Part shown: positions 3,414-57,247 of the stretch, in pieces
Layout of the letters: each line of letters starts with the position of its first letter
Numbering within the stretch: position 1 is the first letter of the stretch
From: a virus
Lineage: Duplodnaviria; Heunggongvirae; Uroviricota; Caudoviricetes
Direction: 5' to 3' (one strand)
DNA length: 64,000 nucleotides
IMG/VR virus record: IMGVR_UViG_2684623127_000005
Notes under the pieces: model-generated
The model's input: only the letters and a program-made list of their open reading frames with translations
The model's database searches: none
Told to the model about the DNA's origin: nothing
Program-made: the position numbers and the translations under genes

Positions 3414-3415
3414 GT

Positions 3416-4039: not shown

Positions 4040-4051
4040 CTGGGAGGGTGT

Positions 4052-4450: not shown

Positions 4451-4457
4451 GGACGAT

Positions 4458-5210: not shown

Positions 5211-5223
5211 ACGGAGGTAATAC

Positions 5224-5646: not shown

Positions 5647-5981
5647 ACTTTGTCCTGAAACTGGCGCGTGAGATGGGGAGAGCCGACTGGCGCGCCATGC
5701 TTGCCGGGATGACATCCACCGAATATGCCGACTGGCGACGTTTTTACTGCACGCATTATTTTCAGGATACCCAGCTGGATATGCATTTTTCCGGGCTGAT
5801 GTACGCCGTACTCAGCCTGTTTTTTTGCGATCCGGATATGCATCCGGCGGATTTCAGCCTGTTCGCTCCGGAGGCAGAGGAAGGACAGGCGGAGACGCCG
5901 GACGAAAATGATGTACTGATGCAGAAGGCGGCGGGCCTCGCCGGTGGAGTCCGTTTCGGGGAGGAGGGAAGGAGGTTGTGA
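5224..5981 (+). CDS. T: tail assembly chaperone G-T fusion made by programmed -1 ribosomal frameshift
   Basis: Slippery heptamer A_AAA_AAG at 5622-5628 near the 3' end of G; the -1 frame stays open to 5981 and encodes a gpT-like extension (..KKAFEGELNFVLKLAREMGRADWRAML..). Confidence 0.7.
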
Positions 5982-6024
5982 CAGTTATTGATGGTATCAG
6001 AGGACATTTCAGGAGGTGACCACG

Positions 6025-8670: not shown

Positions 8671-8996
8671 AAACATTTCGCTGGAAAGTGAAGCCGGATA
8701 TGGAGGTGAACTCGCAGCCATCGGTGCGTGAAGTGCGTTTTGGTGACGGGTATTCGCAGCGTATGGCGGCGGGGCTGAATGCTGACCTGAAAACATACCG
8801 TGTGACGCTTTCCGTGACCCGGGAGGAGGCCCGACATCTGGAGGCATTCCTGGCAGAGCACGGAGGCTGGAAGGCATTTTTGTGGAAGCCACCCTATGCA
8901 TACCGGCAGATAAAGGTGACCTGTGCCGGGTGGTCTGCGCGGGTCGGGATGTTGCGCGTTGAGTTCAGCGCGGAGTTTAAGCAGGTGGTGAACTGA
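8667..8996 (+). CDS. M: minor tail protein M
   Basis: MKTFRWKVKPDMEV...RVEFSAEFKQVVN matches lambda gpM. Confidence 0.9.
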   Translation: MKTFRWKVKPDMEVNSQPSVREVRFGDGYSQRMAAGLNADLKTYRVTLSVTREEARHLEAFLAEHGGWKAFLWKPPYAYRQIKVTCAGWSARVGMLRVEFSAEFKQVVN

Positions 8997-9694
8997 TGCA
9001 GGATATTCACGAAGAAAGTCTGAACGAGTCGGTTAAATCAGAGCAGTCACCGCGGGTGGTACTCTGGGAAATCGACCTGACGGCGCAGGGCGGTGAGCGG
9101 TATTTTTTCTGCAATGAGCTGAATGAAAAAGGGGAGGCGGTTACCTGGCAGGGGCGGCAATATCAGGCATACCCGATTGACGGCAGTGGCTTTGAGATGA
9201 ACGGGAAGGGCAGCAGTGCCAGACCGTCGCTGACGGTGTCGAATCTGTTTGGTCTGGTCACCGGGATGGCGGAGGACCTGCAGAGCCTGGTGGGGGCCAC
9301 GGTGGTCCGCCGCCGGGTGTATGCCCGTTTTCTGGATGCGGTGAATTTTGTGGCAGGCAATCCTGAGGCAGACCCTGAGCAGGAGCTGACGGACCGGTGG
9401 GTGGTGGAGCAGATGTCATCGCTGACGGCCATGACGGCCTCGTTTGTGCTGGCGACACCGACGGAGACGGACGGGGCGCTGTTTCCCGGTCGCATCATGC
9501 TGGCGAACACCTGTATGTGGGATTACCGGGGCGATGAATGCGGGTATAACGGTCCGGCAGTGGCGGATGAGTTCGACAACCCCACCACGGATATCCGGAA
9601 GGACAGATGCAGTAAATGCATGCGCGGGTGTGAGATGCGCGGCATGGTGGCTAATTTTGGCGGTTTCCTTTCCATCAATAAACTTTCGCAGTAA
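8996..9694 (+). CDS. L: minor tail protein L
   Basis: MQDIHEESLNES...GRIMLANTCMW...NFGGFLSINKLSQ matches lambda gpL. Confidence 0.9.
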   Translation: MQDIHEESLNESVKSEQSPRVVLWEIDLTAQGGERYFFCNELNEKGEAVTWQGRQYQAYPIDGSGFEMNGKGSSARPSLTVSNLFGLVTGMAEDLQSLVGATVVRRRVYARFLDAVNFVAGNPEADPEQELTDRWVVEQMSSLTAMTASFVLATPTETDGALFPGRIMLANTCMWDYRGDECGYNGPAVADEFDNPTTDIRKDRCSKCMRGCEMRGMVANFGGFLSINKLSQ

Positions 9695-9704
9695 ATCCTG
9701 TTTT

Positions 9705-19842: not shown

Positions 19843-20973
19843 TCAAATGACCAGTTTTTTCCATTCCTTACCGCGTGCGTCGTTGTAAATATCGGTCATT
19901 TTTTGATTCGAATGGCCTAGCAAAATTTTGGTATCAACCCCCTGCTCTCTGAACAATCGCTCTGATAAAGATCTCTGCTCATGGAAAGAGGGAGGGGTGC
20001 CATTAGCACGCCAGTTGTAATCCACAGAATCCCGGGCTTTTTTAAATGCAACGGTTAATGTTGCTGGCTTAACCATCCCGCCGCGCTTAGCTGTCCCTTT
20101 CGCGTGATGGTGGTGCAATAGCCACGGACTAAGAACGCAATCGCGGCAGGATGACACCACATCATCCAGGGTGAGATTTAATTTATCGCAACGCAGAGCC
20201 AGAGGGATGGCAATCCGGGTTCCTGTTTTTTGCTGTTCGACATGAAGATAACCATCCCGGATATCCGAAAATTGCATTTTGCAAATATCTGAAAGGCGCT
20301 GGCCTGTCATCAGTGCCAGCAGCATACCGCGCTGTAAAAAGTAACCATCCTTTTCCGCTGCGTTATAAATCATCATCCACTCATCAAAAGTCAGTCGCTG
20401 TCTTGATATCCGCACCTGCGGTTTTTTTGCCGATTCTGCAGGGTTAAAGCCTGGCGGGACATCGCCCGTTTGCTGAGCTTCCCGGAAAACATCGATCAGT
20501 ACTTTCCTGAAAATTTGTCCCATTCTGTTATGTCCTCTGGCCTTGTACTCTTCCAGTACTGATACCACATCTTTTACGGTTATGGCATCTAACGGTCTGG
20601 TGCCAAAACGTTCATCAAATACCCTGAGAGGGGCCGCTTTCTGTTTCAGCGTGTTGAGTTTGATCTCGCCGTTTTCATATCTTTCCTGTTGAATTTTTCT
20701 GTAATTATTCAGAAAAATGGTAACGGTTGATGAACCGCCGGTATCACTAATAATTTTCTCCTGCAGACTGAGCATTTGTTCCATTTGCTGCCGGGCAAGA
20801 CGGCTGTTCGCTTCTGCTGCAATAGTTTCTGCCAGTTTCTGGTCAATACTGCCGAGACCGTGATTTTTGCCTGTTATGGGATGCCTGTAACGCCAGTAAA
20901 CTTTGTTATTTCTTTTGTCAAAATACGGAGATAATCCCGGAACATCGGTTTTATATTTTCGCGGGCGCGCCAT
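19843..20973 (-). CDS. int: lambda-family tyrosine integrase
   Basis: 376 aa; C-terminus ..LLGHSNQKMTDIYNDARGKEWKKLVI resembles lambda Int tail; overlaps xis. Confidence 0.9.
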   Translation of the reverse strand: MARPRKYKTDVPGLSPYFDKRNNKVYWRYRHPITGKNHGLGSIDQKLAETIAAEANSRLARQQMEQMLSLQEKIISDTGGSSTVTIFLNNYRKIQQERYENGEIKLNTLKQKAAPLRVFDERFGTRPLDAITVKDVVSVLEEYKARGHNRMGQIFRKVLIDVFREAQQTGDVPPGFNPAESAKKPQVRISRQRLTFDEWMMIYNAAEKDGYFLQRGMLLALMTGQRLSDICKMQFSDIRDGYLHVEQQKTGTRIAIPLALRCDKLNLTLDDVVSSCRDCVLSPWLLHHHHAKGTAKRGGMVKPATLTVAFKKARDSVDYNWRANGTPPSFHEQRSLSERLFREQGVDTKILLGHSNQKMTDIYNDARGKEWKKLVI

Positions 20974-24073: not shown

Positions 24074-24691
24074 ATTTTATTTAATAACTCCCGTTCGTGT
24101 TTTCTCTTGTTAATGGCATCTTCAGTAAATACAGGGTTACTGATAGTGACACCAATTTCAAAACAACCTTCAGACGTATTAACGTTTGGTAATAACGTTT
24201 CCATTATCGCGTCCTCAACAATGAATTTTGTGATGCAGTGCCTGGTGCCTCCAGGTGACGTTAACCAGTTAACAATTAACGCCGGATACAGAGAATCCAC
24301 CCATAACACTGTTTTTGGTTTTAACTGTTCCGCGTGCGCTCAGCCGCATTCACCGCATCACAAAATTCACTTTAAAAAGGGCGGCAGAGCAGTCACGGAG
24401 TAAAACTGATACCGCCAAACGTCACCAGAAAATTGATAACAGAGGGCGTTGCAGCGGGGTTGTCACTTAAGCGTATGGTCAGCCTGACAACCCGGTGTCC
24501 TCAAGGGGAAGGAATAACCCCGCCATACTTACCGCCGCGCCATTTCGCGGATTGCCACAACCAGAAGCGCACGGTCGAAGAAATTTAACGACAAGACTTA
24601 TATGCAAAGGGATCTCGCCGTGCGCTTTCGTGTTATGCCCTGACTTTTCAGGGTAAATTAACCTGTGGAAACCTGTTTTTACTGGCGCTAA

Positions 24692-29376: not shown

Positions 29377-29470
29377 TTAAATTTAGCTCTGTTAAAAATT
29401 TAATCCTTAACCGGAGGGGGGGGAGGCGCCCTCAGAACATCAGGAGGCTGTCCGGCAGGGCGGTAGTTAA

Positions 29471-29644
29471 ATGCGAAAGTTCAAAATAATTATTGAAACG
29501 GGAATAGCCGGTGGAGATTTCGAGGATGAATTCGAAGTGGATGATGATGCGACGCCTGATGAAATACATGACGAAGCAAAAGATATTTTCTTTAACTACT
29601 GCAATTACTCATATCACGAAATAAAAGACGAAGAGGAAGAATAA
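29471..29644 (+). CDS. small highly acidic hypothetical protein (57 aa)
   Basis: Hand-translated: MRKFKIIIETGIAGGDFEDEFEVDDDATPDEIHDEAKDIFFNYCNYSYHEIKDEEEE; below ORF-track size cutoff; weak SD. Confidence 0.25.
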   Translation: MRKFKIIIETGIAGGDFEDEFEVDDDATPDEIHDEAKDIFFNYCNYSYHEIKDEEEE

Positions 29645-29903
29645 AATGGCTGATTTTGCTTCAACTAAATATAACGCCAATTTTGAAGAATGGCATGAAC
29701 TGTTAATGGACTATGTAGAGTTACCGCGGTGGAAGCATGGCGTGATATGAAGTTGCATAAGAAGTTGCTTTCTTTATCTGGAAATAATATATCCTCTAAC
29801 GGGAAAGAAATAGAAAATGGTGACTTTAATGAATCCAACCCCCAATAAAAAGAGGTTGGGAATACTATGGTTAAATTAGAGTAAATATCTTGGATATCTA
29901 AAA

Positions 29904-30620
29904 TTAGGTTACTTTTACGCCTATAAAGGTGTAATCATCCATTATGTTTTTCTCAATCCTTTTTCTTAAACTACTCGCAAAAGCTGTTGGTGAGAGCATT
30001 GTCTTCTCAGAAAACCTTGGTCTGACATCCCAATGCTTATAGGCACCATCAGTCATTGCATAGAGTTGAAGATAGCCATTATAAATTAGCTGGCTAATCG
30101 GAAAAGACATTAACTCAAAATTCAAATCCGTTGTATTTGATAAAGCATTCGTTAGGACTGAAGATAGCCGTTCTTTATGATTTCTTAAATTACGTAATTT
30201 ATGTTCACCAGAATCAAGGAGTTCTTGATATCTCGTTTGATCAGTGGTTAACTGATTTAGTTTATTGTTTTTATTGAAGTATACTCGGCAATCACCGGAA
30301 TGACCAATTAACACTTCATTTTTTTTGATCTGAACAATTGTTAAGGTTGTGGCAGTGCTAATATCTAAATTGTCAATTTCTTTTTTAGCTGAATGAAATG
30401 CACTTTCAATTGAGAAAAAGGAAGTGCCTAGCGTGTGTCTAATGCCACGAATGGCTGCATGAGATGCAAGCATTGAATGTTCAGAGGAACCAACCCCATC
30501 AGCTACTGCAAAGACAATGTTAAAATCGCTATCAAAAGATGGCGGTAAATAAAAGTCTTCATTTTCTTTTTTTTGGGGTTGTTTTAGGCTAAAACATGCC
30601 ATTTCAATTATGTTCTTCAT
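29904..30620 (-). CDS. PP2C-family Ser/Thr protein phosphatase
   Basis: 238 aa; PP2C signatures VADGVGS and MTDGAYK; ATG at 30620 with GGAGG SD 6 nt upstream, start lies inside 3' end of kinase gene (17-nt overlap). Confidence 0.85.
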   Translation of the reverse strand: MKNIIEMACFSLKQPQKKENEDFYLPPSFDSDFNIVFAVADGVGSSEHSMLASHAAIRGIRHTLGTSFFSIESAFHSAKKEIDNLDISTATTLTIVQIKKNEVLIGHSGDCRVYFNKNNKLNQLTTDQTRYQELLDSGEHKLRNLRNHKERLSSVLTNALSNTTDLNFELMSFPISQLIYNGYLQLYAMTDGAYKHWDVRPRFSEKTMLSPTAFASSLRKRIEKNIMDDYTFIGVKVT

Positions 30621-31398
30621 GATTTACCTCCCCCGTCACTTTTAAAAAATCTTCCAGTAACTCCCGTGTGCTTTGATATCGTTCTTCAGGCCAATGTGCG
30701 CAACATTTTGCAATCAATCTTTTTAATTTTTCACTTCTTTCTGTGGGATATATATCAGTGATAATTTTACCTGCTGCAAATATGTCACTTTGAAAAGAAA
30801 AAAGACCGCTATCATGTATTTCGGGCGCTCGATATCCATCTGTGCCCATGTGATTAGGCTTAAATTTTGTTTTGATTTCGGCCCGTAAGGTATCTCTGTC
30901 TTTTACTAGACCAAAATCAGATATTTTATACTTTCCATCGGCATAATAAAGTATGTTTCCTGGTTTTAAATCACGATGTATATAGTTGTTTTCATGTATG
31001 GTGATAATTCCTTTTAAAATCTGAGTAACAGCAGACTTCCTCTCCGCGTAGTTCATACCATTGCGGATGGCTTCATATAAGTTACACTCTGCCAATTCCA
31101 TAACAAAATAAGGTTTATCACCATTTGTATTAAATAAAACTATTGGCGCTATTGAATCATAGTTTATTCTATTGAGAGTGCATTGTGTTTTGATCTCAAC
31201 TAAAAAACGCTGTCTTAAATCAGTCAACTCTTTTATAGCGGTCTTGTCAAAGTCCGGGCAAGGTGAAAAGTATTTGCGAGCATATGTGGTCATGTGGGTC
31301 TGGGTTAAGTTATAGACATCAACCTTAAATACTTCGCCAAAACTCCCTTGTCCTAAACTGCGACCATCTTTAAGTAAATAATTACCGCACCGATCCAC
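30604..31398 (-). CDS. Hanks-type Ser/Thr protein kinase (catalytic domain only)
   Basis: 264 aa; GQGSFGEV glycine loop, ARK, HRDLKPGNIL catalytic loop, DFGL, GYRAPE activation-loop motif; GTG start with AGGGGG SD. Confidence 0.9.
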   Translation of the reverse strand: MDRCGNYLLKDGRSLGQGSFGEVFKVDVYNLTQTHMTTYARKYFSPCPDFDKTAIKELTDLRQRFLVEIKTQCTLNRINYDSIAPIVLFNTNGDKPYFVMELAECNLYEAIRNGMNYAERKSAVTQILKGIITIHENNYIHRDLKPGNILYYADGKYKISDFGLVKDRDTLRAEIKTKFKPNHMGTDGYRAPEIHDSGLFSFQSDIFAAGKIITDIYPTERSEKLKRLIAKCCAHWPEERYQSTRELLEDFLKVTGEVNHEEHN

Positions 31399-31554
31399 GG
31401 CGCCCCCTTAACTCTCAGTAATGGATTGATAAGACTGGAAAAACATGCATTACCTCCTTTTATACACGTTTGCTATTTTTATTGCAATGCCTCACCTGTG
31501 GGCACTTAGAAAGGTGAGATTCTGATGAGTCTTTAACTGATTGAATTCGTTCCA

Positions 31555-31571
31555 ATGTGGGAATCCCACAT
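31555..31571. promoter_or_regulatory. perfect 17-bp palindrome in kinase-hok intergenic region (candidate operator)
   Basis: ATGTGGGAATCCCACAT read directly. Confidence 0.3.
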
Positions 31572-31808
31572 CGGGAGAACATTACCAATAGGGATAAAAA
31601 CGATTTGTGGGAAAAGGGGAGTTAAGTAAAATTGCTGCGGGTGCTTGAGGCTATCTGTCTCAGGCATGAACACCAAAAGGCAGATAGAGAAAAGCCCCAG
31701 TTAACATTACGCGTCCGGCAAGACGCTTAACATTAATCTGAGGCCATATCTATGCTCTACACACGTAGGTTAGCCTCTTACGTGCCGAAAGGCAAGGAGA
31801 AGCAGGCT

Positions 31809-31964
31809 ATGAAGCAGCAAAAGGCGATGCTAATCGCCCTGATCGTCATCTGTTTAACCGTCATAGTGACGGCACTGGTAACGAGGAAAGACCTCTGCGA
31901 GGTACGAATCCGAACCGGCCAGACGGAGGTCGCTGTCTTCACAGCTTACGAACCTGAGGAGTAA
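31809..31964 (+). CDS. hok: Hok/Gef-family type I toxin
   Basis: MKQQKAMLIALIVICLTVIVTALVTRKDLCEVRIRTGQTEVAVFTAYEPEE is a canonical Hok; in-frame upstream extension from 31752 (mok-like leader); antisense sok presumably overlaps ~31700-31810 on minus strand. Confidence 0.85.
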   Translation: MKQQKAMLIALIVICLTVIVTALVTRKDLCEVRIRTGQTEVAVFTAYEPEE

Positions 31965-36678: not shown

Positions 36679-36926
36679 TATTGCAGAATTAACCGGGTAT
36701 CAGGTACGCCCCGAAAATTTTAAATGTCTCACAATTCAGACGGTTGACAGTTGTCTGGTTTGCGGGGAGTTTGTTAAAAGAAACTGGCATGGTGAATCCC
36801 CCTGAGCGGAGGGGCATATCAGCGCAGGTGTTTCTACTCTATCCTTTCTGTGCGGGTTCAGGTGCTGATACTGAACTCACCGGGAGGCACCCGGCACCAT
36901 GCATATGGTTAACAGACACGTAGCGA

Positions 36927-36952
36927 AGCCCCTCTCCGGAGGGGCTTTTTTT
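36927..36952 (+). terminator. strong rho-independent terminator upstream of nanS-p
   Basis: AGCCCCTCTCCGGAGGGGCT hairpin + TTTTTTT. Confidence 0.6.
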
Positions 36953-37181
36953 ATGGGCAAAAAAAGCCCGCGCTGGGAGACGCGGGCGGCAAGGAATAAA
37001 CAACAAAACGTGAAGTAATATTTCAGCTGGCGAATAATACCCCATGGTAATCACTCTGCGCAACTGCGCGGCCTTTTTCGAATTGCGGGCTGTAAGTCTC
37101 CCTTCTGCCATTGTCCTGTAACTTCCGGACTTCAGCCCGCTCTTTATCTGATTCAGTACACTATCCCGGCCGGGAGGATTC

Positions 37182-45243: not shown

Positions 45244-46745
45244 TGGCAATTATTGATGATGTGATCGGCGTGTTTTCCCCCGGGTGGAAAGCAGCCAGAC
45301 TGCGTTCAAGGGCGTTAATCATGGCCTATGAGGCGGTGAAACCGACCCGGACACATAAAGCCCGGCGGGAAAATCGCTCTGCTGATCAGCTCAGTAAATA
45401 CGGTGCGGTTTCCCTGCGGGAGCAGGCCCGTTTTCTGGATATCAATCATGACCTGGTGATTGGTGTGTTTGACAAGCTGGAAGAGCGGGTGATTGGTGCC
45501 AGGGGAATTATTGTGGAGCCTCAGCCATTACGAAAAAACGGGGAAATGGCGGCTGAGCTGGCTGCGGATATCCGCCGTTTGTGGGCTGAATGGTCCGTGA
45601 GTCCGGATGTGACAGGGCAGTATACCCGTCCTGTGCTTGAACGTTTACTGCTGCGGACCTGGCTGCGGGATGGTGAAGTGTTTGCGCAGATGGTCAGTGG
45701 TGCGGGAAACGGTCTGGAACGGACGGCGGGAGTGCCATTCTGGCTTGAGGCGATGGAGCCGGATTTTGTTCCCATGCGCACTGATGAATCCGCCGGACTG
45801 AATCAGGGGGTTTTTCTTGATGAGTGGGGAAGACCGAAAAAATATCTGGTTTATAAAAATTATCCGGTCAGCGGCCGGCAGAGTGATACGAAAGAAATCG
45901 CTGCCGGAAAAATGATCCACCTGAAGTTCACTCGTCGTCTGCATCAGACGCGAGGCTCATCCATGTTATCGGGGGTGCTGATGCGGATCAGTGCCCTTAA
46001 GGAGTATGAGGATGCGGAACTGACAGCGGCGCGTATTGCTGCGGCGCTGGGACTGTATATCCGTAAAGGTGACGGACAGGACTATGAAGATCCGGGGAGC
46101 AAAGAGACCGAGCGGGAAGTCCATATCACCCCGGGTATTATTTATGACGATTTGCGCAAGGGCGAGGATATCGGCATGGTCAAATCTGACCGTCCCAATC
46201 CCAACCTTGAAACTTTCCGCAACGGCCAGTTGCGTGCAGTGGCAGCAGGCAGTCGTCTGAGTTTTTCCAGTGCGGCGCGTAACTATAACGGCACCTACAG
46301 CGCCCAGCGGCAGGAGCTGGTCGAGTCCACGGATGGTTACCTGATCCTGCAGGACTGTTTTATTGGCGCGGTAACCCGCCCGGTGTACCGGACATGGCTG
46401 AATATGGTGGTTGCGGCAGGTCTGCTGAAAATTCCGGCGGATGTGGAGATGAAAACGCTATATAACGCGACGTATTCCGGTCCGGTGATGCCGTGGATCG
46501 ACCCGGTTAAGGAAGCTGAAGCCTGGAGAATTCAGATCCGGGGTGGTGCAGCGACAGAATCTGACTGGGTGCGTGCTGGTGGGCGCAATCCGGATGAGGT
46601 CAAACGTCGCCGCAAGGCTGAAATTGATGAAAACAGCAGACTGGGGCTGGTCTTTGATACTGACCCCGTCAACGACAAAGGAGGCAACAGTGCCGGAACT
46701 GAACAACAGCGTCAGCAGGCCACCGACAGCCAGCATGAAGAATAA
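45243..46745 (+). CDS. portal protein
   Basis: 500 aa, position after W, before protease/capsid. Confidence 0.85.
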   Translation: MAIIDDVIGVFSPGWKAARLRSRALIMAYEAVKPTRTHKARRENRSADQLSKYGAVSLREQARFLDINHDLVIGVFDKLEERVIGARGIIVEPQPLRKNGEMAAELAADIRRLWAEWSVSPDVTGQYTRPVLERLLLRTWLRDGEVFAQMVSGAGNGLERTAGVPFWLEAMEPDFVPMRTDESAGLNQGVFLDEWGRPKKYLVYKNYPVSGRQSDTKEIAAGKMIHLKFTRRLHQTRGSSMLSGVLMRISALKEYEDAELTAARIAAALGLYIRKGDGQDYEDPGSKETEREVHITPGIIYDDLRKGEDIGMVKSDRPNPNLETFRNGQLRAVAAGSRLSFSSAARNYNGTYSAQRQELVESTDGYLILQDCFIGAVTRPVYRTWLNMVVAAGLLKIPADVEMKTLYNATYSGPVMPWIDPVKEAEAWRIQIRGGAATESDWVRAGGRNPDEVKRRRKAEIDENSRLGLVFDTDPVNDKGGNSAGTEQQRQQATDSQHEE

Positions 46746-48714
46746 ATCCTGGTTCAGGATGCTGGCGGGTAGTCAGGGTGAGGCAGATATTTATATTTAT
46801 GACGAGATTGGTTTCTGGGGAGTTACCGCGAAGCAGTTTGTCAGCGATATGAATGCCCTGGGTGATATCACCCACATTAATCTCCATATCAATTCACCGG
46901 GTGGCGATGTCTTTGAAGGCATCGCCATTTTTAATGCCCTGAAAAATCAGGGGGCGACCATTACCGTGTATGTGGATGGCGTTGCCGCCTCGATGGCATC
47001 TGTGATTGCGATGGCCGGTGATACGGTCATTATGCCGGAAAATGCCTTCATGATGATCCATAAGCCATGGGGATTCAGTGGCGGGGATGCTGAGGATATG
47101 CGCAGTTATGCCGATTTGCTGGATAAAGTCGAATCGGTACTGTTGCCAGCCTATGCGCAGAAAACCGGAAAAACCACCGATGAAATTGCCGCCATGCTGG
47201 CGGATGAAACCTGGATGTCCGGTGCCGAATGTCTGGCACACGGATTTGCTGACCAGGTGACACCCGCTGTTGAGGCAATGGCATGTATTCAGTCAAAACG
47301 TACAGAGGAATTTAAAAAGATGCCGGAATCCATCCGAAACATGATTACTCCGCCACGCAACAGTGCCCCGCGTGATACCACAGTGACAATCCCTGCACCG
47401 GCGGTAACAGAACCATCACCGGTACCGGCAGTGTCTGATGAGGCGACCATTCGCGCCCGCGTTATGGCAGAACAGAAAGCCCGCATGTCAGGCATTAACG
47501 ATCTGTTTGCCATGTTCGGTGGTCGCTATCAGACGCTTCAGGCACAGTGCGTGGCTGATCCTGACTGTTCGCTGGAAATGGCCCGTGAACGACTGCTGAA
47601 TGAAATGGGCAAGGAGTCCTCGCCGACCAACAAAAATACACCGGCCCATATTTATGCCGGAAACGGCAATTTTGTGGGGGACGGGATCCGCCAGGCGATG
47701 CTGGCCCGTGCCGGATTTGAAAATGTCGAGAAGGATAACGCCTATAACGGGATGACCCTGCGTGAATGGGCTCGCATGTCACTGACGGAGCGCGGTATTG
47801 GGGTGGCCAGTTATAACCCCATGCAGATGGTCGGGCTGGCGCTGACGCACAGCACCTCTGATTTTGGCAATATTCTGCTGGATGTGTCGAACAAGGGGCT
47901 GATCCAGGGCTGGGAGGAATCAGAAGAAACCTTCCAGAAGTGGACCCGTAAGGGACGCCTGTCAGACTTCAAAACAGCGTATCGCGTGGGGATGGGCGGT
48001 TTTGGTTCTCTGCGCCAGGTTCGTGAGGGGGCGGAGTATAAATACATCACCACCTCAGATCGCAAGGAGACCATTGCACTGGCCACTTACGGGGAGATTT
48101 TCTCCATCACCCGCCAGGCCATTATCAATGATGATCTGAATATGCTGGTGGACGTGCCGATGAAGATGGGGCGTGCGGCGAAGGCAACGATTGGTGACCT
48201 GGTCTACAAGGTGCTGACGGATAACCCGAAACTGTCCGACGGTAAGGCGCTGTTCCATGCCGATCACAAAAATATTGCCACCGGGGGGATCTCCGTTTCC
48301 GGACTGGATGCGGCCCGTCAGATGATGCGCCTGCAGAAAGAAGGCGATCGTGCCCTGAATATCCGTCCGGCCTTTATGCTGGTACCGGTGGCACTGGAGA
48401 CGGTGGCGAACCAGACCATCAAATCGGCCAGTGTGAAAGGGGCGGATGCAAACGCCGGTGTCATTAACCCTATCCAGAACTTTGCTGAGGTGATTGCAGA
48501 AGCGCGTCTTGATGCGGCAGACCCGAAAACCTGGTATCTGGCGGCGGCACAGGGCACTGACACCATTGAAGTGGCCTGGCTGGATGGTGTGGACACGCCA
48601 TACATTGATCAGCAGGAAGGTTTCACCACTGACGGCATTGCCACAAAAATCCGTATTGATGCCGGAGTGGCACCACTTGACTGGCGCGGGCTGGTGCGTT
48701 CGTCGGTGGCCTGA
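46690..48714 (+). CDS. prohead protease / scaffold / major capsid fusion protein (copy 2)
   Basis: Near-identical to 701..2725. Confidence 0.7.
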   Translation: MPELNNSVSRPPTASMKNKSWFRMLAGSQGEADIYIYDEIGFWGVTAKQFVSDMNALGDITHINLHINSPGGDVFEGIAIFNALKNQGATITVYVDGVAASMASVIAMAGDTVIMPENAFMMIHKPWGFSGGDAEDMRSYADLLDKVESVLLPAYAQKTGKTTDEIAAMLADETWMSGAECLAHGFADQVTPAVEAMACIQSKRTEEFKKMPESIRNMITPPRNSAPRDTTVTIPAPAVTEPSPVPAVSDEATIRARVMAEQKARMSGINDLFAMFGGRYQTLQAQCVADPDCSLEMARERLLNEMGKESSPTNKNTPAHIYAGNGNFVGDGIRQAMLARAGFENVEKDNAYNGMTLREWARMSLTERGIGVASYNPMQMVGLALTHSTSDFGNILLDVSNKGLIQGWEESEETFQKWTRKGRLSDFKTAYRVGMGGFGSLRQVREGAEYKYITTSDRKETIALATYGEIFSITRQAIINDDLNMLVDVPMKMGRAAKATIGDLVYKVLTDNPKLSDGKALFHADHKNIATGGISVSGLDAARQMMRLQKEGDRALNIRPAFMLVPVALETVANQTIKSASVKGADANAGVINPIQNFAEVIAEARLDAADPKTWYLAAAQGTDTIEVAWLDGVDTPYIDQQEGFTTDGIATKIRIDAGVAPLDWRGLVRSSVA

Positions 48715-48736
48715 TAACCGCGTTATCACAATCACT

Positions 48737-48755
48737 GCCCGAAAGGGCTTTTTTT
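48737..48755 (+). terminator. rho-independent terminator after capsid gene (copy 2)
   Basis: GCCCGAAAGGGC + T7. Confidence 0.6.
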
Positions 48756-48801
48756 ATGCCTGAAAAACAGCCCCACAGGGGCTGTCCGGAGAAACAGCAT
48801 T

Positions 48802-49128
48802 ATGGCGAAAAATTTTGTACAGGACGGTACCACCATTGAACTGGTGAATGCCGGAGATCAGACCATCCTGAGCGGTGCTGCGGTGGTGGTCGGCAGTATG
48901 GTGGCCGTGGCCATTACCGATATTCCTGCCGGTGAGGCCGGTGACGGTTTTGCCGAAGGCGTGTTCCTGCTGCCCAAACAGTCTGCTGACGACATTCAGT
49001 CCGGCGCGGTGGTTTATCTGAAGGACGGGGTTGTGCAGCTGGCTGCAGACGGTGCGGTGGCAGCGGGGGTAGCCTGGGAAAATGCCCCTGCAAACAGCGC
49101 CACTGTGGCGGTAAAAATCAATGTCTGA
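48802..49128 (+). CDS. small head-associated structural protein (copy 2)
   Basis: Identical to 2813..3139. Confidence 0.45.
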   Translation: MAKNFVQDGTTIELVNAGDQTILSGAAVVVGSMVAVAITDIPAGEAGDGFAEGVFLLPKQSADDIQSGAVVYLKDGVVQLAADGAVAAGVAWENAPANSATVAVKINV

Positions 49129-49402
49129 TCTGTTTACGCGAATGTGTTGCCGGATGGACGTGGCGACCGTTCGGGTGATGGGCAAACAGGCGGAGATTAA
49201 CGGCGTCGTGTACGACGTGATGCCGGAGGAAGAGTCCGCGGAGATGGGGGCGCTTTCGGGCAGCCAGTTGTCACTGGTGGTGTTTTCAGCCCGGTACCGT
49301 CCGGCCCGTCATGATGTTGTTGTGTTTGCGGGGCGCACACTGACGGTGACCCGTTATGACACGTACAACGGTAAACCCCGGATTTTTGTCGAACAGGAAT
49401 GA
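49121..49402 (+). CDS. head-tail joining protein, putative (copy 2)
   Basis: Identical to 3132..3413. Confidence 0.45.
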   Translation: MSDLFTRMCCRMDVATVRVMGKQAEINGVVYDVMPEEESAEMGALSGSQLSLVVFSARYRPARHDVVVFAGRTLTVTRYDTYNGKPRIFVEQE

Positions 49403-49404
49403 GT

Positions 49405-50028
49405 ATGGCAATAAAAGGTCTGGCGCAGGCCATGAAAAATCTGGATGCAATTGATCGCCGTGCCGTTCCCCGGGCCTCTGCCACGACACTGAACCGAGTG
49501 GCGGGGGCCATTATTGCGAAAACGGCCTCTTCAGTTGCCAGGGAGCTGGCCGTTCCCCGTCGTCTTATCCGTGCCCGCATCCGGTTAAGTCCGGCACGAC
49601 CGGATAAGGTTTACGCAAAGGTTTACATCAATACCGGCAACCTGCCCGCCATCAAACTGGGGGAGGCCCGCGTTCGACTTTCCCGCAGAAAACGGAGAAA
49701 GAAAGGACAGCGTGCGGCCCTGAAAGGGGGCGGCAGTGTGCTGATTGTGGGGAAAAGACGGATCCCGGACGCCTTTATCACCCGGCTGGCTAACGGACGC
49801 TGGCATGTGATGCAGCGTATGCCGTGGGCATCATCATCCACCGGCGCGGACAGCAAAGGGAGGCCGAAACGCCACCGTCTGCCGATCGAAGTGGTGAAGA
49901 TTACGACTGCCGGACCGCTGGCAGAAACCTTTGAACGTGAACGGGACCGGATGTACCGGGAAAAATTACCGGCGCAGATGATGAAAGCCATGACGCATCA
50001 GTTACGCCTGGTGCTGAAAAGAAAATGA
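49405..50028 (+). CDS. Z: tail completion protein Z (copy 2)
   Basis: Identical to copy 1. Confidence 0.85.
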   Translation: MAIKGLAQAMKNLDAIDRRAVPRASATTLNRVAGAIIAKTASSVARELAVPRRLIRARIRLSPARPDKVYAKVYINTGNLPAIKLGEARVRLSRRKRRKKGQRAALKGGGSVLIVGKRRIPDAFITRLANGRWHVMQRMPWASSSTGADSKGRPKRHRLPIEVVKITTAGPLAETFERERDRMYREKLPAQMMKAMTHQLRLVLKRK

Positions 50029-50040
50029 CTGGGAGGGTGT

Positions 50041-50439
50041 ATGAAACACCGTGAAATACGGGCGGCAGTTCTGTCTGCCCTGAAAGAAAATATTTCTGAG
50101 AGGGTGAGCTGGTTTGACGGTCGCCCGGTTTTTATTGATGAACAGGAACTGCCTGCTGTTGCTGTTTACCTGACAGATGCGTCTGCTGCTGACGAGTTCG
50201 TTGATGAGGGAACCTGGGAGGCGACACTGCATATTGAGGTTTTTCTCAGGGCAAAAGAACCGGACTCGGCACTGGATATGTGGATGGAAGAAAAAATTCT
50301 TCCTGCGCTGGAGGCAGTTCCCGGGCTCAGTGCATTACTGCTGAAGATGAATCTTCAGGGGTATGACTACCGCCGGGATGATGAGTTTATGATGTGGGGA
50401 TCGGCAGATCTCCTGTGGAAAATTACCTACGAGATGTGA
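50041..50439 (+). CDS. U: tail terminator protein U (copy 2)
   Basis: Identical to copy 1. Confidence 0.9.
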
Positions 50440-50446
50440 GGACGAT

Positions 50447-51199
50447 ATGGCAACACCAAATCCCCTTGAGCCGGTAAAAGGTGCCGGTACCACTCTGTGG
50501 GTTTACAACGGCAAGGGTGATGCTTATGCAAACCCGTTGTCAGACGATGACTGGCAGCGACTGGCTAAGGTGAAGGATCTGACGCCGGGCGAGATGACGG
50601 CAGAACCCTACGATGATAACTACCTGGATGATGAAGACGCGGACTGGACCGCGACCGGGCAGGGGCAGAAGTCTGCAGGAGATACCAGTTTTACGCTGGC
50701 CTGGAAACCGGGAGAAGAAGGTCAGAAAGGGCTTATAGGCTGGTTTGAAAGCGGGGATGTGCGGGCCTATAAAATCCGTTTCCCAAATGGCACGGTGGAT
50801 GTGTTCCGTGGCTGGGTCAGCAGTATCGGTAAGGCCGTGACGGCGAAAGAAGTGATCACCCGCACGGTGAAAGTCACTAACGTGGGCAAACCTTCCGTGG
50901 CGGAAGAACGCAGCGAAATTACGCCGGCCACTGCAATTAAGGTGACACCGACATCCGGTACGGTGGCAAAAGGGAAAACAACCACCCTGACGGTTTCTTT
51001 TGAGCCGGAAAGTGCAACCGACAAGACGTTCAGAGCGGTTTCCGCCGATCCGTCGAAAGCCACCATTAGTGTGAAAGATATGACAATTACGGTAAACGGC
51101 GTGGCGACAGGTAAGGTGCAGATCCCTGTGGTGAGCGGAAATGGTCAGTTCGCCGCAGTGGCTGAAGTCACCGTTACTGAAGCGGGCGCTGCAGGGTAA
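50447..51199 (+). CDS. V: major tail protein V (copy 2)
   Basis: Identical to copy 1. Confidence 0.9.
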
Positions 51200-51212
51200 A
51201 CGGAGGTAATAC

Positions 51213-51635
51213 ATGTTTCTGAAAACAGAACAATTTGAATATAACGGTGTGTCCGTCACGCTGTCGGAGCTGTCTGCGCTGCAGCGGTTTGATTATATGA
51301 AGTTTGTTTCAGACGCAGCACAACAGGAGACAACGAAGCATAATGCCGTGCACATTAACCAGCGATATCTGGAAACGGCATCCCTGCTTGTGGCGATGTC
51401 GCTATGGCATTCCCATTCCCTCAAAGGCACTCTGGCCTCTCCGGAGACAGAGATGCAGCAGATCCGCCGTGAAGTGATGCTGGGATGGCCTGCTGATGCA
51501 CTGAATCAGGCAACGAACCGGGTGCTTTATCTTTCAGGTATGCTGGATAACCGGCACGATGCCGATCCTGAACCAACCGGGAAAGCAGAAGCGACAGAGC
51601 CGGTAACATCAAAAAAGCATTCGAAGGTGAGCTGA
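51213..51635 (+). CDS. G: tail assembly chaperone G (copy 2)
   Basis: Near-identical to copy 1. Confidence 0.85.
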   Translation: MFLKTEQFEYNGVSVTLSELSALQRFDYMKFVSDAAQQETTKHNAVHINQRYLETASLLVAMSLWHSHSLKGTLASPETEMQQIRREVMLGWPADALNQATNRVLYLSGMLDNRHDADPEPTGKAEATEPVTSKKHSKVS

Positions 51636-51970
51636 ACTTTGTCCTGAAACTGGCGCGTGAGATGGGGAGAGCCGACTGGCGCGCCATGCTTGCCGGGATG
51701 ACATCCACCGAATATGCCGACTGGCGACGTTTTTACTGCACGCATTATTTTCAGGATACCCAGCTGGATATGCATTTTTCCGGGCTGACGTACGCCGTAC
51801 TCAGCCTGTTTTTTTGCGATCCGGATATGCATCCGGCGGATTTCAGCCTGTTCGCTCCGGAGGCAGAGGAAGGACAGGCGGAGACGCCGGACGAAAATGA
51901 TGTACTGATGCAGAAGGCGGCGGGCCTCGCCGGTGGAGTCCGTTTCGGGGAGGAGGGAAGGAGGTTGTGA
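51213..51970 (+). CDS. T: tail assembly chaperone G-T frameshift product (copy 2)
   Basis: Slippery A_AAA_AAG at 51611-51617; -1 frame open to 51970. Confidence 0.7.
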
Positions 51971-52013
51971 CAGTTATTGATGGTATCAGAGGACATTTCA
52001 GGAGGTGACCACG

Positions 52014-54659
52014 ATGGCAGGTAATTTTGCCGATCTGACAGCCGTGCTGACACTGGATTCTGCCCGTTTTTCTGAAGAGGCAGCGCGGGTAAAAAAAGAG
52101 CTGGGTGAAACCAGTGCGCTTGCTGATTTGATGTCCGGGAAAGTCAGTCAGTCTTTCAGAAAACAGGCTGATGCTGCTGAGCAGAGTCTGAGCCGACAGG
52201 CGCTGGCTGCACAAAAAGCCGGGATATCAGTCGGACAGTATAAGGCTGCCATGCGCACACTGCCCGCACAGTTCACGGATATTGTCACTCAGCTTGCCGG
52301 TGGTCAGAATCCCTTCCTTATCATGCTGCAGCAGGGGGGGCAGATCAGCGATTCATTCGGTGGACCGCTCAGCCTGCTTACCCTGCTGAAGGAGGAACTT
52401 CTCGGGATCAGGGATGCCTCTGAATCATCAGAGGAGTCGCTGTCAGATACGGCAAATGCACTGGCTGAAAATGCCCGGAATGCCGGTGAGCTGGGACGAT
52501 TTATGTCGGTGGCCCGTGTGGCGGCAGGTGGCGGGGTTGCCGTACTGGCCGCGCTTGCTGCCGCCGCCTGGCAGGCAGAGCAGGCTGACCGGGCCTTATT
52601 GCGTTCACTGATCCTGACCGGAGGGGCGGCTGCCACCACAACGGCAGAATTGTGGAAAATGGCCGGGGTGATCAGCGATGAAGCCGGTGGTGGTATCAGA
52701 CAGGCGGCAGAAAATCTGGCCCGTCTGGCAGAAAGCGGGAAATATACCGCCGGGCAGCTACGGATCATGGGGGAAACCTCTCAGAGATGGCTGCAGACGG
52801 TGGGGGACGATGCCGGGAAGGTGGAAAAAGCCTTTGAAGGGATTGCAGCAGATCCGGTGAAGGCGCTGGCCTCCCTGAATCAGCAGTATAACTTCCTGAG
52901 CGTTTCCCAGTTACGCCATATTGATGAGCTTGAGCGCACGAAAGGTAAACAGGCTGCGGTGACGGAGGCGATGTCCCTGTTTGCGGATGTCATGAATGCA
53001 CGTCTGGAGCAACTTGATAAAGCGGCCACGCCGGTGGAAAAAATCTGGGACGATGTTAAAACCTGGACTTCTGACGCATGGGCATGGATAGGTGATCATA
53101 CACTGGGGGCACTCAGTCTGATCACTGACGTGGTGGCCGGAACCGTTGAACAGGTGAAGCTGCTGCTTGTGCAGGGGGATCTGGCGCTGGCTGAATTTAT
53201 TCAGTCAGCCTGGGAAACGACAAAGAATGTGCCCGGCGTTGGTGCGTTGTTTGGTGAACTGGCAGAAGAGAACCGCGTATTTATTGAGAAAACAAAACGC
53301 GATGAACTGGCGCTGAGAAAATCCATTGCGGAACGGGATGCGCGTATACGCCAGGGGGAAATGGGGTACATCAACCGCTCGCGTGCAACAGGCGTCAGCA
53401 AAGGTCCTGGGCAGCAGGAAGCCGTCAGCCGTCTGGCTGAAGAGCTGACAGGTAAAAAGCATACATCACCGAAAACGCGCTCTGCCGGGGAGAGGGAAGA
53501 GGAGCAGGCAAGAGAGGCTCTGCTTGCCCTTGAAGCTGAGCTCAGGACGCTGGAAAAACACAGCGGTGCGAATGAGAAAATTAGCCGGCAGCGCCGTGAT
53601 TTATGGAAGGCGGAAAGTCAGTATGCGGTCCTGAAAGAGGCTGCCACGAAACGGCAGTTATCCGGGCAGGAAAAATCCCTGCTGGCCCATGAGAAAGAGA
53701 CGCTGGAGTACAAACGCCAGCTGGCTGACCTGGGCGACAAGGTTGAACACCAGAAACGCCTGAATGAGCTGGCACAGCAGGCGGTGCGGTTTGAAGAGCA
53801 GCAGAGCGCGAAGCAGGCCGCCATCAGCGCAAAAGCCCGCGGTCTCACTGACCGTCAGGCGCAGCGGGAGTCTGAAGCGCAGCGTCTTCGGGACGTGTAC
53901 GGTGATAATCCGCAGGCGCTGGCCCGGGTCACCGGGGCACTGAAACAGACATGGGCGGATGAAGACATGCTGCGCGGTGACTGGCTGGCCGGGCTGAAGT
54001 CCGGCTGGGGGGAGTGGGCGGAAAGTGCGACGGACAGTTTTTCGCAGGTTAAAAGTGCTGCCACGCAGACCTTTGACGGTATTGCACAGAATATGGCGGC
54101 GATGCTGACCGGTGCAGAGGCAGACTGGCGGGGATTCACCCGTTCGGTGCTGTCCATGATGACAGAAATCCTGCTTAAACAGGCCATGGTGGGCATTGTC
54201 GGGCGTATCGGCAGCGCCATTGGCGGTGCTTTCGGTGGTGGTGCATCTGCTTCCTCGGGGACGGCCATTGAGGCTGCGGCGGCGAACTTCCATTTCGCGA
54301 CCGGAGGATTTACGGGGACGGGCGGCAAATATGAGCCTGCGGGGATAGTTCACCGCGGGGAGTTTGTTTTCACGAAAGAGGCAACCAGCCGGATAGGTGT
54401 GGGGAATCTTTACCGTCTGATGCGCGGCTATGCGGAAGGTGGTTATGTGGGTGGTGCCGGAAGTCCGGCGCAGATGCGGCGGGCGGAAGGTATTAATTTT
54501 AATCAGAACAATCACGTGGTGATTCAGAACGACGGTATCAACGGACAGGCGGGGCCGCAGCTGATGAAGGCGGTGTATGACATGGCCCGCAAGGGGGCGC
54601 AGGATGAACTCCGGCTGCAGTTGCGTGATGGCGGTATGTTATCAGGGAGCGGGCGATGA
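52014..54659 (+). CDS. H: tail tape measure protein H (copy 2)
   Basis: Near-identical to copy 1 with scattered substitutions in C-terminal third. Confidence 0.9.
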   Translation: MAGNFADLTAVLTLDSARFSEEAARVKKELGETSALADLMSGKVSQSFRKQADAAEQSLSRQALAAQKAGISVGQYKAAMRTLPAQFTDIVTQLAGGQNPFLIMLQQGGQISDSFGGPLSLLTLLKEELLGIRDASESSEESLSDTANALAENARNAGELGRFMSVARVAAGGGVAVLAALAAAAWQAEQADRALLRSLILTGGAAATTTAELWKMAGVISDEAGGGIRQAAENLARLAESGKYTAGQLRIMGETSQRWLQTVGDDAGKVEKAFEGIAADPVKALASLNQQYNFLSVSQLRHIDELERTKGKQAAVTEAMSLFADVMNARLEQLDKAATPVEKIWDDVKTWTSDAWAWIGDHTLGALSLITDVVAGTVEQVKLLLVQGDLALAEFIQSAWETTKNVPGVGALFGELAEENRVFIEKTKRDELALRKSIAERDARIRQGEMGYINRSRATGVSKGPGQQEAVSRLAEELTGKKHTSPKTRSAGEREEEQAREALLALEAELRTLEKHSGANEKISRQRRDLWKAESQYAVLKEAATKRQLSGQEKSLLAHEKETLEYKRQLADLGDKVEHQKRLNELAQQAVRFEEQQSAKQAAISAKARGLTDRQAQRESEAQRLRDVYGDNPQALARVTGALKQTWADEDMLRGDWLAGLKSGWGEWAESATDSFSQVKSAATQTFDGIAQNMAAMLTGAEADWRGFTRSVLSMMTEILLKQAMVGIVGRIGSAIGGAFGGGASASSGTAIEAAAANFHFATGGFTGTGGKYEPAGIVHRGEFVFTKEATSRIGVGNLYRLMRGYAEGGYVGGAGSPAQMRRAEGINFNQNNHVVIQNDGINGQAGPQLMKAVYDMARKGAQDELRLQLRDGGMLSGSGR

Positions 54660-54985
54660 AAACCTTTCGCTGGAAAGTGAAGCCGGATATGGAGGTGAAC
54701 TCGCAGCCATCGGTGCGTGAAGTGCGTTTTGGTGACGGGTACTCACAGCGTATGGCGGCAGGGCTGAATGCTGACCTGAAAACATACCGGGTGACGCTTT
54801 CCGTGACCCGGGAGGAGGCCCGGCATCTGGAAGCGTTTCTGGCAGAGCACGGGGGCTGGAAGGCATTTTTGTGGAAGCCACCCTATGCATACCGGCAGAT
54901 AAAGGTGACCTGTGCCGGGTGGTCTGCGCGGGTCGGGATGTTGCGCGTTGAGTTCAGCGCGGAGTTTAAGCAGGTGGTGAACTGA
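54656..54985 (+). CDS. M: minor tail protein M (copy 2)
   Basis: Identical protein to copy 1. Confidence 0.9.
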   Translation: MKTFRWKVKPDMEVNSQPSVREVRFGDGYSQRMAAGLNADLKTYRVTLSVTREEARHLEAFLAEHGGWKAFLWKPPYAYRQIKVTCAGWSARVGMLRVEFSAEFKQVVN

Positions 54986-55683
54986 TGCAGGACATTCATG
55001 AAGAAAGTCTGAACGAGTCGGTTAAATCAGAGCACTCACCGCGGGTGGTGCTCTGGGAAATCGACCTGACGGTGCAGGGCGGTGAGCGGTATTTTTTCTG
55101 CAATGAGCTGAATGAAAAAAGGGAGCCGGTGACCTGGCAGGGGCGGCAATATCAGGCGTACCCGATTGAGGGCAGTGGCTTTGAGATGAACGGAAAGGGC
55201 AGCAGTGCCCGCCCGTCGCTGACGGTGTCCAATCTGTTCGGTCTTGTCACCGGGATGGCGGAGGATTTGCAGAGCCTGGTGGGTGCCACGGTGGTCCGCC
55301 GCCGGGTGTATGCGCGTTTTCTGGATGCGGTGAACTTTGTGGCAGGCAATCCGGAGGCCGACCCGGAGCAGGAGCTGAGCGACCGCTGGGTGGTGGAGCA
55401 GATGTCATCGCTGACGGCCATGACGGCCTCGTTTGTGCTGGCCACACCGACCGAGACGGACGGGGCGCTGTTTCCCGGTCGCATCATGCTGGCGAACACC
55501 TGTATGTGGACCTACCGCTCTGATGAGTGTGGTTACACGGGCGGGGCGGTGGCGGATGAGTTCGACAACCCCACCACGGATATCCGGAAGGACAGATGCA
55601 GTAAATGCATGCGCGGGTGTGAGATGCGCGGCATGGTGGCTAATTTCGGCGGTTTCCTTTCCATTAACAAACTTTCGCAGTAA
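54985..55683 (+). CDS. L: minor tail protein L (copy 2)
   Basis: Near-identical to copy 1. Confidence 0.9.
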   Translation: MQDIHEESLNESVKSEHSPRVVLWEIDLTVQGGERYFFCNELNEKREPVTWQGRQYQAYPIEGSGFEMNGKGSSARPSLTVSNLFGLVTGMAEDLQSLVGATVVRRRVYARFLDAVNFVAGNPEADPEQELSDRWVVEQMSSLTAMTASFVLATPTETDGALFPGRIMLANTCMWTYRSDECGYTGGAVADEFDNPTTDIRKDRCSKCMRGCEMRGMVANFGGFLSINKLSQ

Positions 55684-55688
55684 ATCCA

Positions 55689-57007: not shown

Positions 57008-57247
57008 AAATAAAAAAATCCCGCAGAGTTAGCGGAGCTGCGGGAGAGAACGATGAAGATTAACGTTATGGAGTTATTTTTCAGGCATCAAAAAAGTAAC
57101 GCAGCGTCATTATTGCGGCTACAGGCAATTGCCGGAAATGTGAAGAGTTTCAGAAATTTTATTCCGTCATGACACAGGCACCCTCCGGGGTGCCTGTTGT
57201 TTTCTGGCATAAACAGATTCAGACATCAGACAGGAGAGGGGGACAGA

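Follow-up and report, generated by a model that had tools for sequence, protein, structure and literature searches.

A two-gene kinase and PP2C phosphatase cassette mobile among temperate phages and satellites, with a candidate role in anti-phage conflict

The 64,000-nucleotide (nt) stretch of the caudoviricete virus record IMGVR_UViG_2684623127_000005 (hereafter the window, by which we mean the whole stretch that was analyzed) carries on its minus strand two overlapping genes coding for a Hanks-type protein kinase and a PP2C phosphatase, and raises the question of what two enzymes of opposing activity, each reduced to its catalytic domain, do for the element that carries them. We find that the pair is a mobile two-gene cassette, which in Gammaproteobacteria is carried as accessory cargo by temperate phages, by P4-like satellites and by small islands, and its anatomy and genomic context point to a possible function in conflicts between phages. 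The argument starts from the following features:

30604 to 31398, minus strand: open reading frame (ORF) of 264 amino acids (aa) with a GTG start, a predicted Hanks-type Ser/Thr kinase of the eukaryotic protein kinase (ePK) fold and of the RD type (HRD), a bare catalytic domain
29904 to 30620, minus strand: ORF of 238 aa with an ATG start, a predicted single-domain PPM/PP2C Ser/Thr phosphatase
30604 to 30631, minus strand: putative translational-coupling junction, with GGAGG at 30631-30627 in the 3' end of the kinase gene, a 6-nt spacer and the PP2C ATG at 30620-30618

Across its length the kinase shows Pkinase-family Pfam matches only (Pkinase, E=1.4e-31). Its sequence contains the motifs GQGSFGEV, ARK, HRDLKPGNIL, DFGL and GYRAPE, and with them the elements by which the Hanks superfamily is recognized, namely the Gly-rich loop (G16xG18xxG21-V23), the VAIK lysine K42, the alphaC glutamate E68, the catalytic loop (H141-R142-D143-L-K145-x-x-N148), D161 of DFG, E193 of APE, D205 of alphaF and R240 of alphaH-I. 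Among 28 homologues that are 33-83% identical, G18, G21, V23, A40, K42, E68, H141-R142-D143, N148, D161-F162-G163, E193, D205 and R240 are invariant, and in a 54-sequence alignment the same signatures are likewise kept, invariant or nearly so. The AlphaFold 2 (AF2) model, with a pLDDT (predicted local distance difference test) score of 90.6, is a complete ePK fold with the kinase domain spanning residues 1-260 and nothing appended, its sole disordered part being residues 172-176 of the activation loop. The best structural matches of this model are tyrosine kinases (FGFR2 and RET); we set aside a tyrosine-kinase identity and take the match as generic resemblance of the ePK fold, since both the catalytic loop and the P+1 region show motifs of Ser/Thr kinases. 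From the motifs HRDLKPGN and GTDGYRAPE (GTxxYxAPE) we predict a specificity for Ser/Thr rather than Tyr.

The partner protein is recognized by Pfam as PP2C_2 (E=1.4e-10) and by NCBIfam as Stp1_PP2C (E=8.6e-19, far below the equivalog cutoff). It contains VADGVGS and MTDGAYK, and across alignments of 30-51 homologues D22 (NED), D41-G42 (ADGVG), G109-D110 (GDCR), D191-G192 (TDGA) and D228-D229 (DDYT) are invariant, as are T91-T92; it thus combines the metal-binding aspartates of motifs I, II, VIII and XI with the PP2C beta-sandwich fold, as expected of the PPM/PP2C family. Its AF2 model (pLDDT 93.7) superposes in Foldseek on the bacterial PPM enzymes MspP, tPphA, PstP and Stp1 with template modelling (TM) scores of 0.72-0.78. 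Based on the invariant residues and the confident models, both enzymes look catalytically competent. Both genes are also under strong purifying selection, with a ratio of nonsynonymous to synonymous substitution rates (dN/dS) of 0.06-0.12 against DNA copies that are 80% and 86% identical, and because the two ORFs are conserved with invariant catalytic residues in homologues 33-100% identical, the pair is not a product of chance. No DNA-binding or sensor domain was found in either the kinase or the PP2C. The PP2C gene contains two A8 homopolymer runs on the minus strand, at 30567-30574 and 30319-30326.

The kinase stop codon (30606-30604) lies past the PP2C ATG, which gives an overlap of 17 nt. 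When the junction was scored as the distance from kinase stop to PP2C start in 98 related loci, it was found to be -4 nt (ATGA or GTGA) in 59 and -17 nt in the 10 that make up this E. coli clade, to fall between -8 and +4 nt in 26 others, and to measure +16, +106 and +287 nt in one locus each; a tight junction is kept in 96 of the 98. Purine-rich Shine-Dalgarno-like motifs (e.g. GGAGG, AAGGAG and GGGGG) usually stand upstream of the PP2C start across these loci. The persistence of the tight junction implies that coupled translation belongs to the whole family and is not an accident of the window copy. We predict that kinase and PP2C are translated from one mRNA with obligatory coupling, the kinase first and the PP2C second, in which case the phosphatase would be made whenever the kinase is. 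An earlier note, made from the letters of the window alone, had described these two minus-strand genes as overlapping by 17 nt (30604-30620 in the ORF list), with GGAGG placed 6 nt before the PP2C ATG, and as a coupled operon of a bare kinase with every Hanks motif intact and a phosphatase retaining its PP2C Asp motifs; the results given above bear out this description, and the profile searches that it recommended for both proteins returned the Pkinase and PP2C_2 matches already cited.

The pairing extends to the homologues. Both families are compact in Gammaproteobacteria (kinases of 255-265 aa, PP2Cs of 238-250 aa), and their carriers include many Enterobacterales, among them Xenorhabdus and plant-associated members, along with Vibrio, Photobacterium, Aeromonas, Shewanella, Acinetobacter and Glaesserella. 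When 1.84 billion representatives were searched exhaustively with phmmer, the PP2C recovered no more than 11 clusters at E<=1e-30 and 67 clusters at E<=1e-10; weaker matches belong to the generic PP2C background. Scanning IMG/VR with peptide patterns drawn from the PP2C only, we obtained 126 viral contigs and fetched 80 loci, every one of which (80/80) has a kinase homologue immediately upstream on the same strand. The distance matrices of kinase and PP2C are correlated at r=0.88, a value reached in none of 2000 Mantel permutations; the two proteins co-evolve as a pair. As for a third conserved gene, when the two nearest ORFs to the left and to the right of 54 dereplicated cassettes were tallied by Pfam and PADLOC, only phage core genes of varied kinds appeared. 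Likewise, the 57-aa ORF at 29665-29838 was rejected as a cassette member, as it has no matches and the homologous P4-borne copy ends at the PP2C stop. In the Aeromonas loci L017-L019 (8590-9237) a DUF4760 gene follows 6 nt after the PP2C, perhaps as an accessory third member confined to that lineage; DUF4760 is also found among the P2-hotspot cargo listed by Rousset 2022 (PMC9122126).

The mobility of the pair is read from its borders and from the variety of its seats, for which two further features are needed:

29906 to 31478, minus strand: cassette core, the mobile unit, from 80 nt upstream of the kinase GTG to the PP2C stop, with exact blastn borders
29736 to 31592, no strand assigned: limits of the insert in the nin slot, the segment that differs from related phages without the cassette

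Blastn homology (80%) with a copy borne by a P4-like satellite begins and stops exactly at 29906 and 31478. Phages without the cassette match only positions 1-336 and 2194-2401 of a query taken from 29400-31800, other cargo filling the slot. A variant that is 84% identical lies between psu and int of P4-like satellites in E. coli, Klebsiella and Salmonella, a locus shown by Rousset et al. (2022, PMC9122126) to serve as a reservoir for anti-phage systems. Further copies are located between Rz and terminase in a Xenorhabdus prophage and in Escherichia phage Flotzy, between Q and the lysis genes in Cronobacter phiES15, in a small integrase + Mob_Pre island of Vibrio, and in chromosomal islets of Aeromonas and Acinetobacter. 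In the tally of the 54 dereplicated cassettes the upstream side shows lysozyme (14), Rz (8), HTH_3 (8), YdaS (6), S24 peptidase (5) and Q (6), and the downstream side small terminases (about 9) and integrase (2). The cassette directly follows an S24 cI-type repressor gene, in the same orientation, in four loci (L043, L064, L080 and L096); the repressor is the next ORF in three of them and is separated by one small ORF in L043. In lambda the corresponding position downstream of cI is taken by rexAB, and this region is transcribed in the lysogen. The same cargo is thus exchanged among several classic moron slots, namely the one downstream of cI, the one after Q, the interval from Rz to terminase, and P4 psu-int. 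Within E. coli, the cassette core occurs in 35 of 5426 complete genomes, mostly Shiga toxin-producing E. coli (STEC), enterotoxigenic E. coli (ETEC) and livestock isolates. All 35 copies are chromosomal, with both genes annotated intact; 29 are at least 99% identical, 4 are 92% identical and occupy the same DUF7167/hokD slot of differently mosaic prophages, and the remaining 2 are the 80%-identical variant.

Composition adds to this picture. The G+C fraction is 0.33-0.38 over 29600-31400 against 0.45-0.59 on either side, and 0.359 for the cassette against 0.501 in its 3-kb flanks; across the family the cassette is poorer in G+C than its flanks in 50 of 51 loci, with means of 37.7% and 46.9%. 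The surroundings of the window copy can be taken from the annotation of the identical prophage region of E. coli O103:H2 12009, which lists to the left of the pair cI-like, cro, ydaT, replication, DUF1627, DUF977 and DUF7167 genes, and to the right hokD, DUF968 (ydfU), RusA and Q, all on the plus strand, with the PP2C and kinase genes alone on the minus strand. Judging from this order, the pair occupies the nin equivalent of a Rac-like lambdoid prophage and runs antisense to its early-right operon. The nearest neighbor upstream of the kinase is itself a known module:

31639 to 31964, plus strand: hok/sok (hokD) type I toxin-antitoxin, outside the cassette and divergent from the kinase (Rfam sok, 117 bits), with hokD annotated at the same place in the O103:H2 12009 prophage

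Two toxin-type modules, the kinase/PP2C pair and hok/sok, accordingly stand back to back in the nin region. The location between the replication genes and ydfU-rusA-Q, against the early rightward operon and beside hok/sok, and the A+T-rich character of the block relative to the phage backbone are as the earlier note had them, and the block reads as a horizontally acquired insert. Its further suggestion, that the same nin slot in related prophages might house other defense cargo, fared less well: the two related phages compared hold small ORFs of unknown kind there, none with a PADLOC or other defense match, so that the comparison does not support this slot as a defense hotspot.

What the pair does can be approached from these data by way of prediction. 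We propose, at roughly even confidence, that it is a minimal kinase-toxin/phosphatase-antidote module, expressed in the lysogen, which would abort or exclude infecting phages. The kinase is of the RD type and so probably needs phosphorylation of its activation loop, where T170, T177 and T186 are candidate autophosphorylation sites; in the resting lysogen the PP2C would keep that loop and the substrates of the kinase dephosphorylated, and the system silent. An infecting phage would upset this balance, most simply through a phage protein that binds and inhibits the PP2C, by analogy with the prophage-borne KKP system, in which T4 Gp59 triggers defense by inhibiting the phosphatase PfpC (PMC11341870). 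The kinase might then phosphorylate host and/or phage proteins needed for growth and replication, and the outcome would be growth arrest, abortive infection or exclusion of the invader, protecting the clone of the prophage. The kinase would act in this scheme as toxin and the phosphatase as enzymatic antidote, a logic like that of type VII toxin-antitoxin systems, and, with a separate sensor domain lacking, sensing would have to fall to the kinase or the PP2C itself. Strict synteny, co-evolution, purifying selection, exact borders, the slots occupied, low G+C content, the precedent of KKP and the direction of decay are the points from which we infer this function, and the presence of homologous cassettes downstream of cI and in the P4 psu-int slot strengthens the earlier suggestion of a defense role.

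Several observations weigh against this proposal, beginning with expression, for which two candidate features upstream of the kinase have to be considered:

31459 to 31487, minus strand: candidate promoter TTGCAA-17 nt-TATAAA, hand-read from the sequence, with its candidate -10 element at 31464-31459
31408 to 31446, minus strand: 12-codon mini-ORF (MFFQSYQSITES) with a perfect GGAGG-6 nt-ATG, ending 9 nt before the kinase GTG

A scan for consensus promoters and terminators gave counts no higher than in shuffled sequence, and none upstream of the kinase; it missed the TTGCAA-17-TATAAA candidate because it requires T at position 6 of the -10 element. The candidate promoter and the mini-ORF are also in conflict with each other, in that the predicted transcription start falls at or after the Shine-Dalgarno site of the mini-ORF. 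The immediate neighbors of the 54 dereplicated cassettes are phage core genes and not known defense genes, and many copies are in late-operon orientation and could serve the lytic cycle. With respect to known defense models, the PP2C matches no PADLOC model at E<=0.1, and the matches of the kinase (PD-T4-6 at 1e-32, Stk2 at 3e-25) concern the generic catalytic core only, covering 187/327 and 187/292 profile positions for PD-T4-6 (57-64%) and 199/500 for Stk2 (positions 162-360). In the open-access papers and bioRxiv preprints that were searched, the two-gene family and its RefSeq accessions are not mentioned, and nothing beyond KKP was found. The evidence from gene decay is likewise slight. 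The kinase is truncated or frameshifted beside an intact PP2C (99-100% identity) in five independent loci (L033, L038, L072, L073/L074 and L094), and the reverse is seen in one, the IMG/VR E. coli contig L031 (4461-5172), in which the PP2C has two frameshifts and the kinase is 100% intact; this 5:1 bias is weakly in the direction expected if the kinase is the harmful partner, the asymmetry not being significant (about p=0.1). Both L031 frameshifts lie about where the PP2C gene has its two A8 runs, and this locus may reflect a kinase that is tolerated alone, inactivation of the PP2C by slipped-strand mispairing, or a homopolymer sequencing error.

As to the upstream features in their own right, the -10 element and spacing of the candidate promoter are conserved in the P4-borne copy, its -35 element lying at the homology border. 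The peptide frame of the mini-ORF is roughly retained in that copy, its Shine-Dalgarno site is not conserved there, and the mini-ORF could be a leader peptide or a chance occurrence. At the left homology border the heptamer GCATTGC is shared between the window (31478-31490) and locus L011 (about 6905-6920); in P4 satellites it appears to be part of the conserved cos-proximal flank of P4, as judged against the P4 flanks in the construct table of Rousset. It could be microhomology at an illegitimate-recombination junction that also supplied the -35 element.

Other functions would account for part of the same evidence. The pair might regulate lysogeny or host physiology by tuning the phosphorylation of a host or prophage regulator, for instance an H-NS-family silencer, and so control induction or lysogen traits, as KKP does in its second role via MvaU (PMC11341870). 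Several cassettes indeed adjoin the immunity region (cI, Cro and YdaS matches), the cassette is likely to be an H-NS target because it is A+T-rich, and in E. coli an identity of 92-100% persists in the same slot of mosaic Rac-like prophages. We nonetheless hold this to be unlikely as the function of the pair, given that it is also carried by P4 satellites, the Vibrio integrase + Mob island and chromosomal islets, where there is no prophage to regulate, and has no DNA-binding or sensor domain; regulation of lysogeny and defense are in any case compatible and not mutually exclusive. The opposing activities of the two enzymes, their position beside hok/sok in the window and the excess of kinase-loss over PP2C-loss alleles (5 to 1) would equally fit a pure addiction module, stabilizing the mobile element by post-segregational killing with no anti-phage role. 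Such a module needs a labile antidote, yet nothing suggests that the PP2C is unstable, the toxin-first order with coupled translation is unusual for classical toxin-antitoxin pairs, and the P4 defense hotspot and the slot downstream of cI point to inter-phage conflict, all of which make addiction alone rather improbable.

The orientation of many copies has to be weighed against a further alternative, a lytic-cycle module for host takeover or counter-defense, comparable to the T7 gp0.7 kinase, in which the phosphatase would limit the damage. Of the 54 dereplicated cassettes, about 14 stand after lysozyme/Rz and about 6 after Q; in both groups they are co-oriented with the late genes and have terminase downstream. 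The intervals from Q to lysis and from Rz to terminase are, however, classic moron slots of lambdoid phages, often with promoters of their own; in the window the cassette runs against the early operon, a long way from the late promoter, and it is also found in satellites and non-phage islets, so that we give a lytic function only a small chance. Least probable by far, to the point of being nearly negligible, is a pair of virulence effectors of STEC prophages directed at eukaryotes, which the eukaryotic-like character of the kinase and the predominance of STEC, ETEC and livestock isolates among the 35 E. coli carriers might bring to mind. Homologues are common in Vibrio, Photobacterium, Aeromonas, Acinetobacter, Xenorhabdus and plant-associated Enterobacterales, the kinase is always accompanied by an antagonistic phosphatase, the locus is not an effector locus, and none of the library scans of the window proteins gave any resemblance to NleH or OspG.

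The remainder of the window offers some observations that are separate from the cassette. It contains two tandem lambdoid prophages, the tail/morphogenesis regions of which, at 1-17134 and 45990-63110, form a 17.1-kb direct repeat of 96.7% identity with copies about 46 kb apart; repeats of this kind are prone to recombination, to deletion or to collapse in assembly. The second prophage has its integrase gene at 19843-20973 on the minus strand. The DicF antisense small RNA (sRNA) is matched by Rfam at 24379-24430 on the minus strand with 76.7 bits, and the annotation of the identical O103:H2 prophage includes dicB; Qin/Rac-type prophages typically carry this module, an inhibitor of cell division. 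The STnc100 sRNA family is matched over its full length (148 bits) at 36758-36958 on the plus strand, downstream of the Q/DNA-methyltransferase region.

Turning to known systems, combinations of the same two folds occur in several settings from which the window pair can be told apart. The housekeeping pairs PknB/PstP, Stk1/Stp1 and PrkC/PrpC are likewise encoded by adjacent, often overlapping genes, but these are chromosomal core genes in the order phosphatase-kinase, and their kinases are membrane proteins with PASTA sensor domains, in contrast to the soluble minimal domains encoded on mobile elements here; the NCBIfam scores of the window pair also stay far below the cutoffs (89 vs 450 and 68 vs 230), and the database names of both proteins are all generic. 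The TerY-P triad, reportedly (Gao et al. 2020) a defense system made up of a TerY vWA protein, a PP2C and a Ser/Thr kinase, resembles the pair in combining a PP2C with a Hanks kinase; membership was rejected because no TerY/vWA gene is adjacent (the neighbors being DUF7167 and hok) and the PP2C has no PADLOC match. Stk2 of Staphylococcus, PD-T4-6 of E. coli and Stk of 933W are Hanks-type kinases too, and cause abortive infection or exclusion, but each of them is one larger protein that has additional domains and lacks a partner phosphatase, whereas the kinase of the cassette is always paired with a PP2C and probably belongs to none of these systems. As to 933W Stk in particular, there was no match at E<=1e-8 to the 933W record in the phage collection. 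The PADLOC run that the earlier note had advised returned for the kinase mad6, PD-T4-6 and Stk2, over the catalytic core only, and nothing for the PP2C, and its statement that the pair maps to no named system stands in the face of these generic matches and of an identity of 25-33% to KKP.

KKP is the closest characterized system. It is an operon of PfpC (PP2C), PfkB (kinase-FHA) and PfkA (kinase-CSD), carried by Pf6, P2, P4 and Mu-like prophages, in which the toxin function is shared by the two kinases and the phosphatase serves as antitoxin, and which also controls Pf lysogeny via phosphorylation of MvaU, an H-NS-family silencer (Guo et al. 2024, Nat Commun, PMC11341870). The likeness lies in the operon of Hanks kinase and PP2C in prophages and satellites, the toxin/antitoxin logic of opposing enzymes, the shared P4 psu-int and P2 hotspots, and the restriction to Gram-negative bacteria. 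The differences are nevertheless substantial. KKP has three genes in the order PP2C-kinase-kinase, whereas the window and all related loci have two in the order kinase-PP2C; its kinases are of 350-430 aa with C-terminal FHA and cold-shock domains essential for toxicity, against one bare kinase of 264 aa; and PfpC is extended at its C terminus by a long tail (358 aa in E. coli E1167), against a PP2C of 238 aa. A BLASTP comparison with the KKP-type operon of E. coli E1167 (pFR102), using sequences from the supplement of Rousset 2022, gave 25% identity for the PP2C (E=1e-3) and 30% (1e-12) and 33% (6e-9) for the kinase, over the catalytic cores only. We consequently reject membership in KKP, as gene number, order and accessory domains differ and the relatedness is at the superfamily level only; the cassette would resemble KKP in outline without belonging to it. 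A 343-aa kinase (P0102) considered as a KKP-type relative proved unrelated by context. The supplements of Rousset 2022 (PMC9122126) include a 'Pkinase + PP2C_2' set in a P2 hotspot, KKP-type triplets and the cloned KKP-type construct pFR102, and the portion of the construct table covered here has no two-gene kinase + PP2C construct.

Taken together, the comparisons argue for a distinct, compact and previously unnamed family, which we term KP, the function of which is predicted from anatomy and context. KKP has already established the principle of kinase toxin and PP2C antitoxin in prophages, which makes the concept less new. Beyond this, we advance more tentatively the view that KP is a widespread minimal anti-phage system, in which two single-domain enzymes of about 250 aa do without a sensor domain and the PP2C or the kinase itself would be the guarded sensor hit by phage proteins, and that it represents an independent and simpler lineage than KKP, present in at least five hotspots of temperate phages and satellites. 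Were KP to act in defense or as a toxin-antitoxin switch, no simpler immune system based on phosphorylation would be known than this bare kinase and bare phosphatase in about 1.6 kb, and it would lend itself unusually well to studying how infection is sensed, and cell fate decided, through reversible phosphorylation. It would also add to the accessory cargo known from the prophages of STEC and other pathogens and would contribute a family that PADLOC 2.0 does not recognize as a system.

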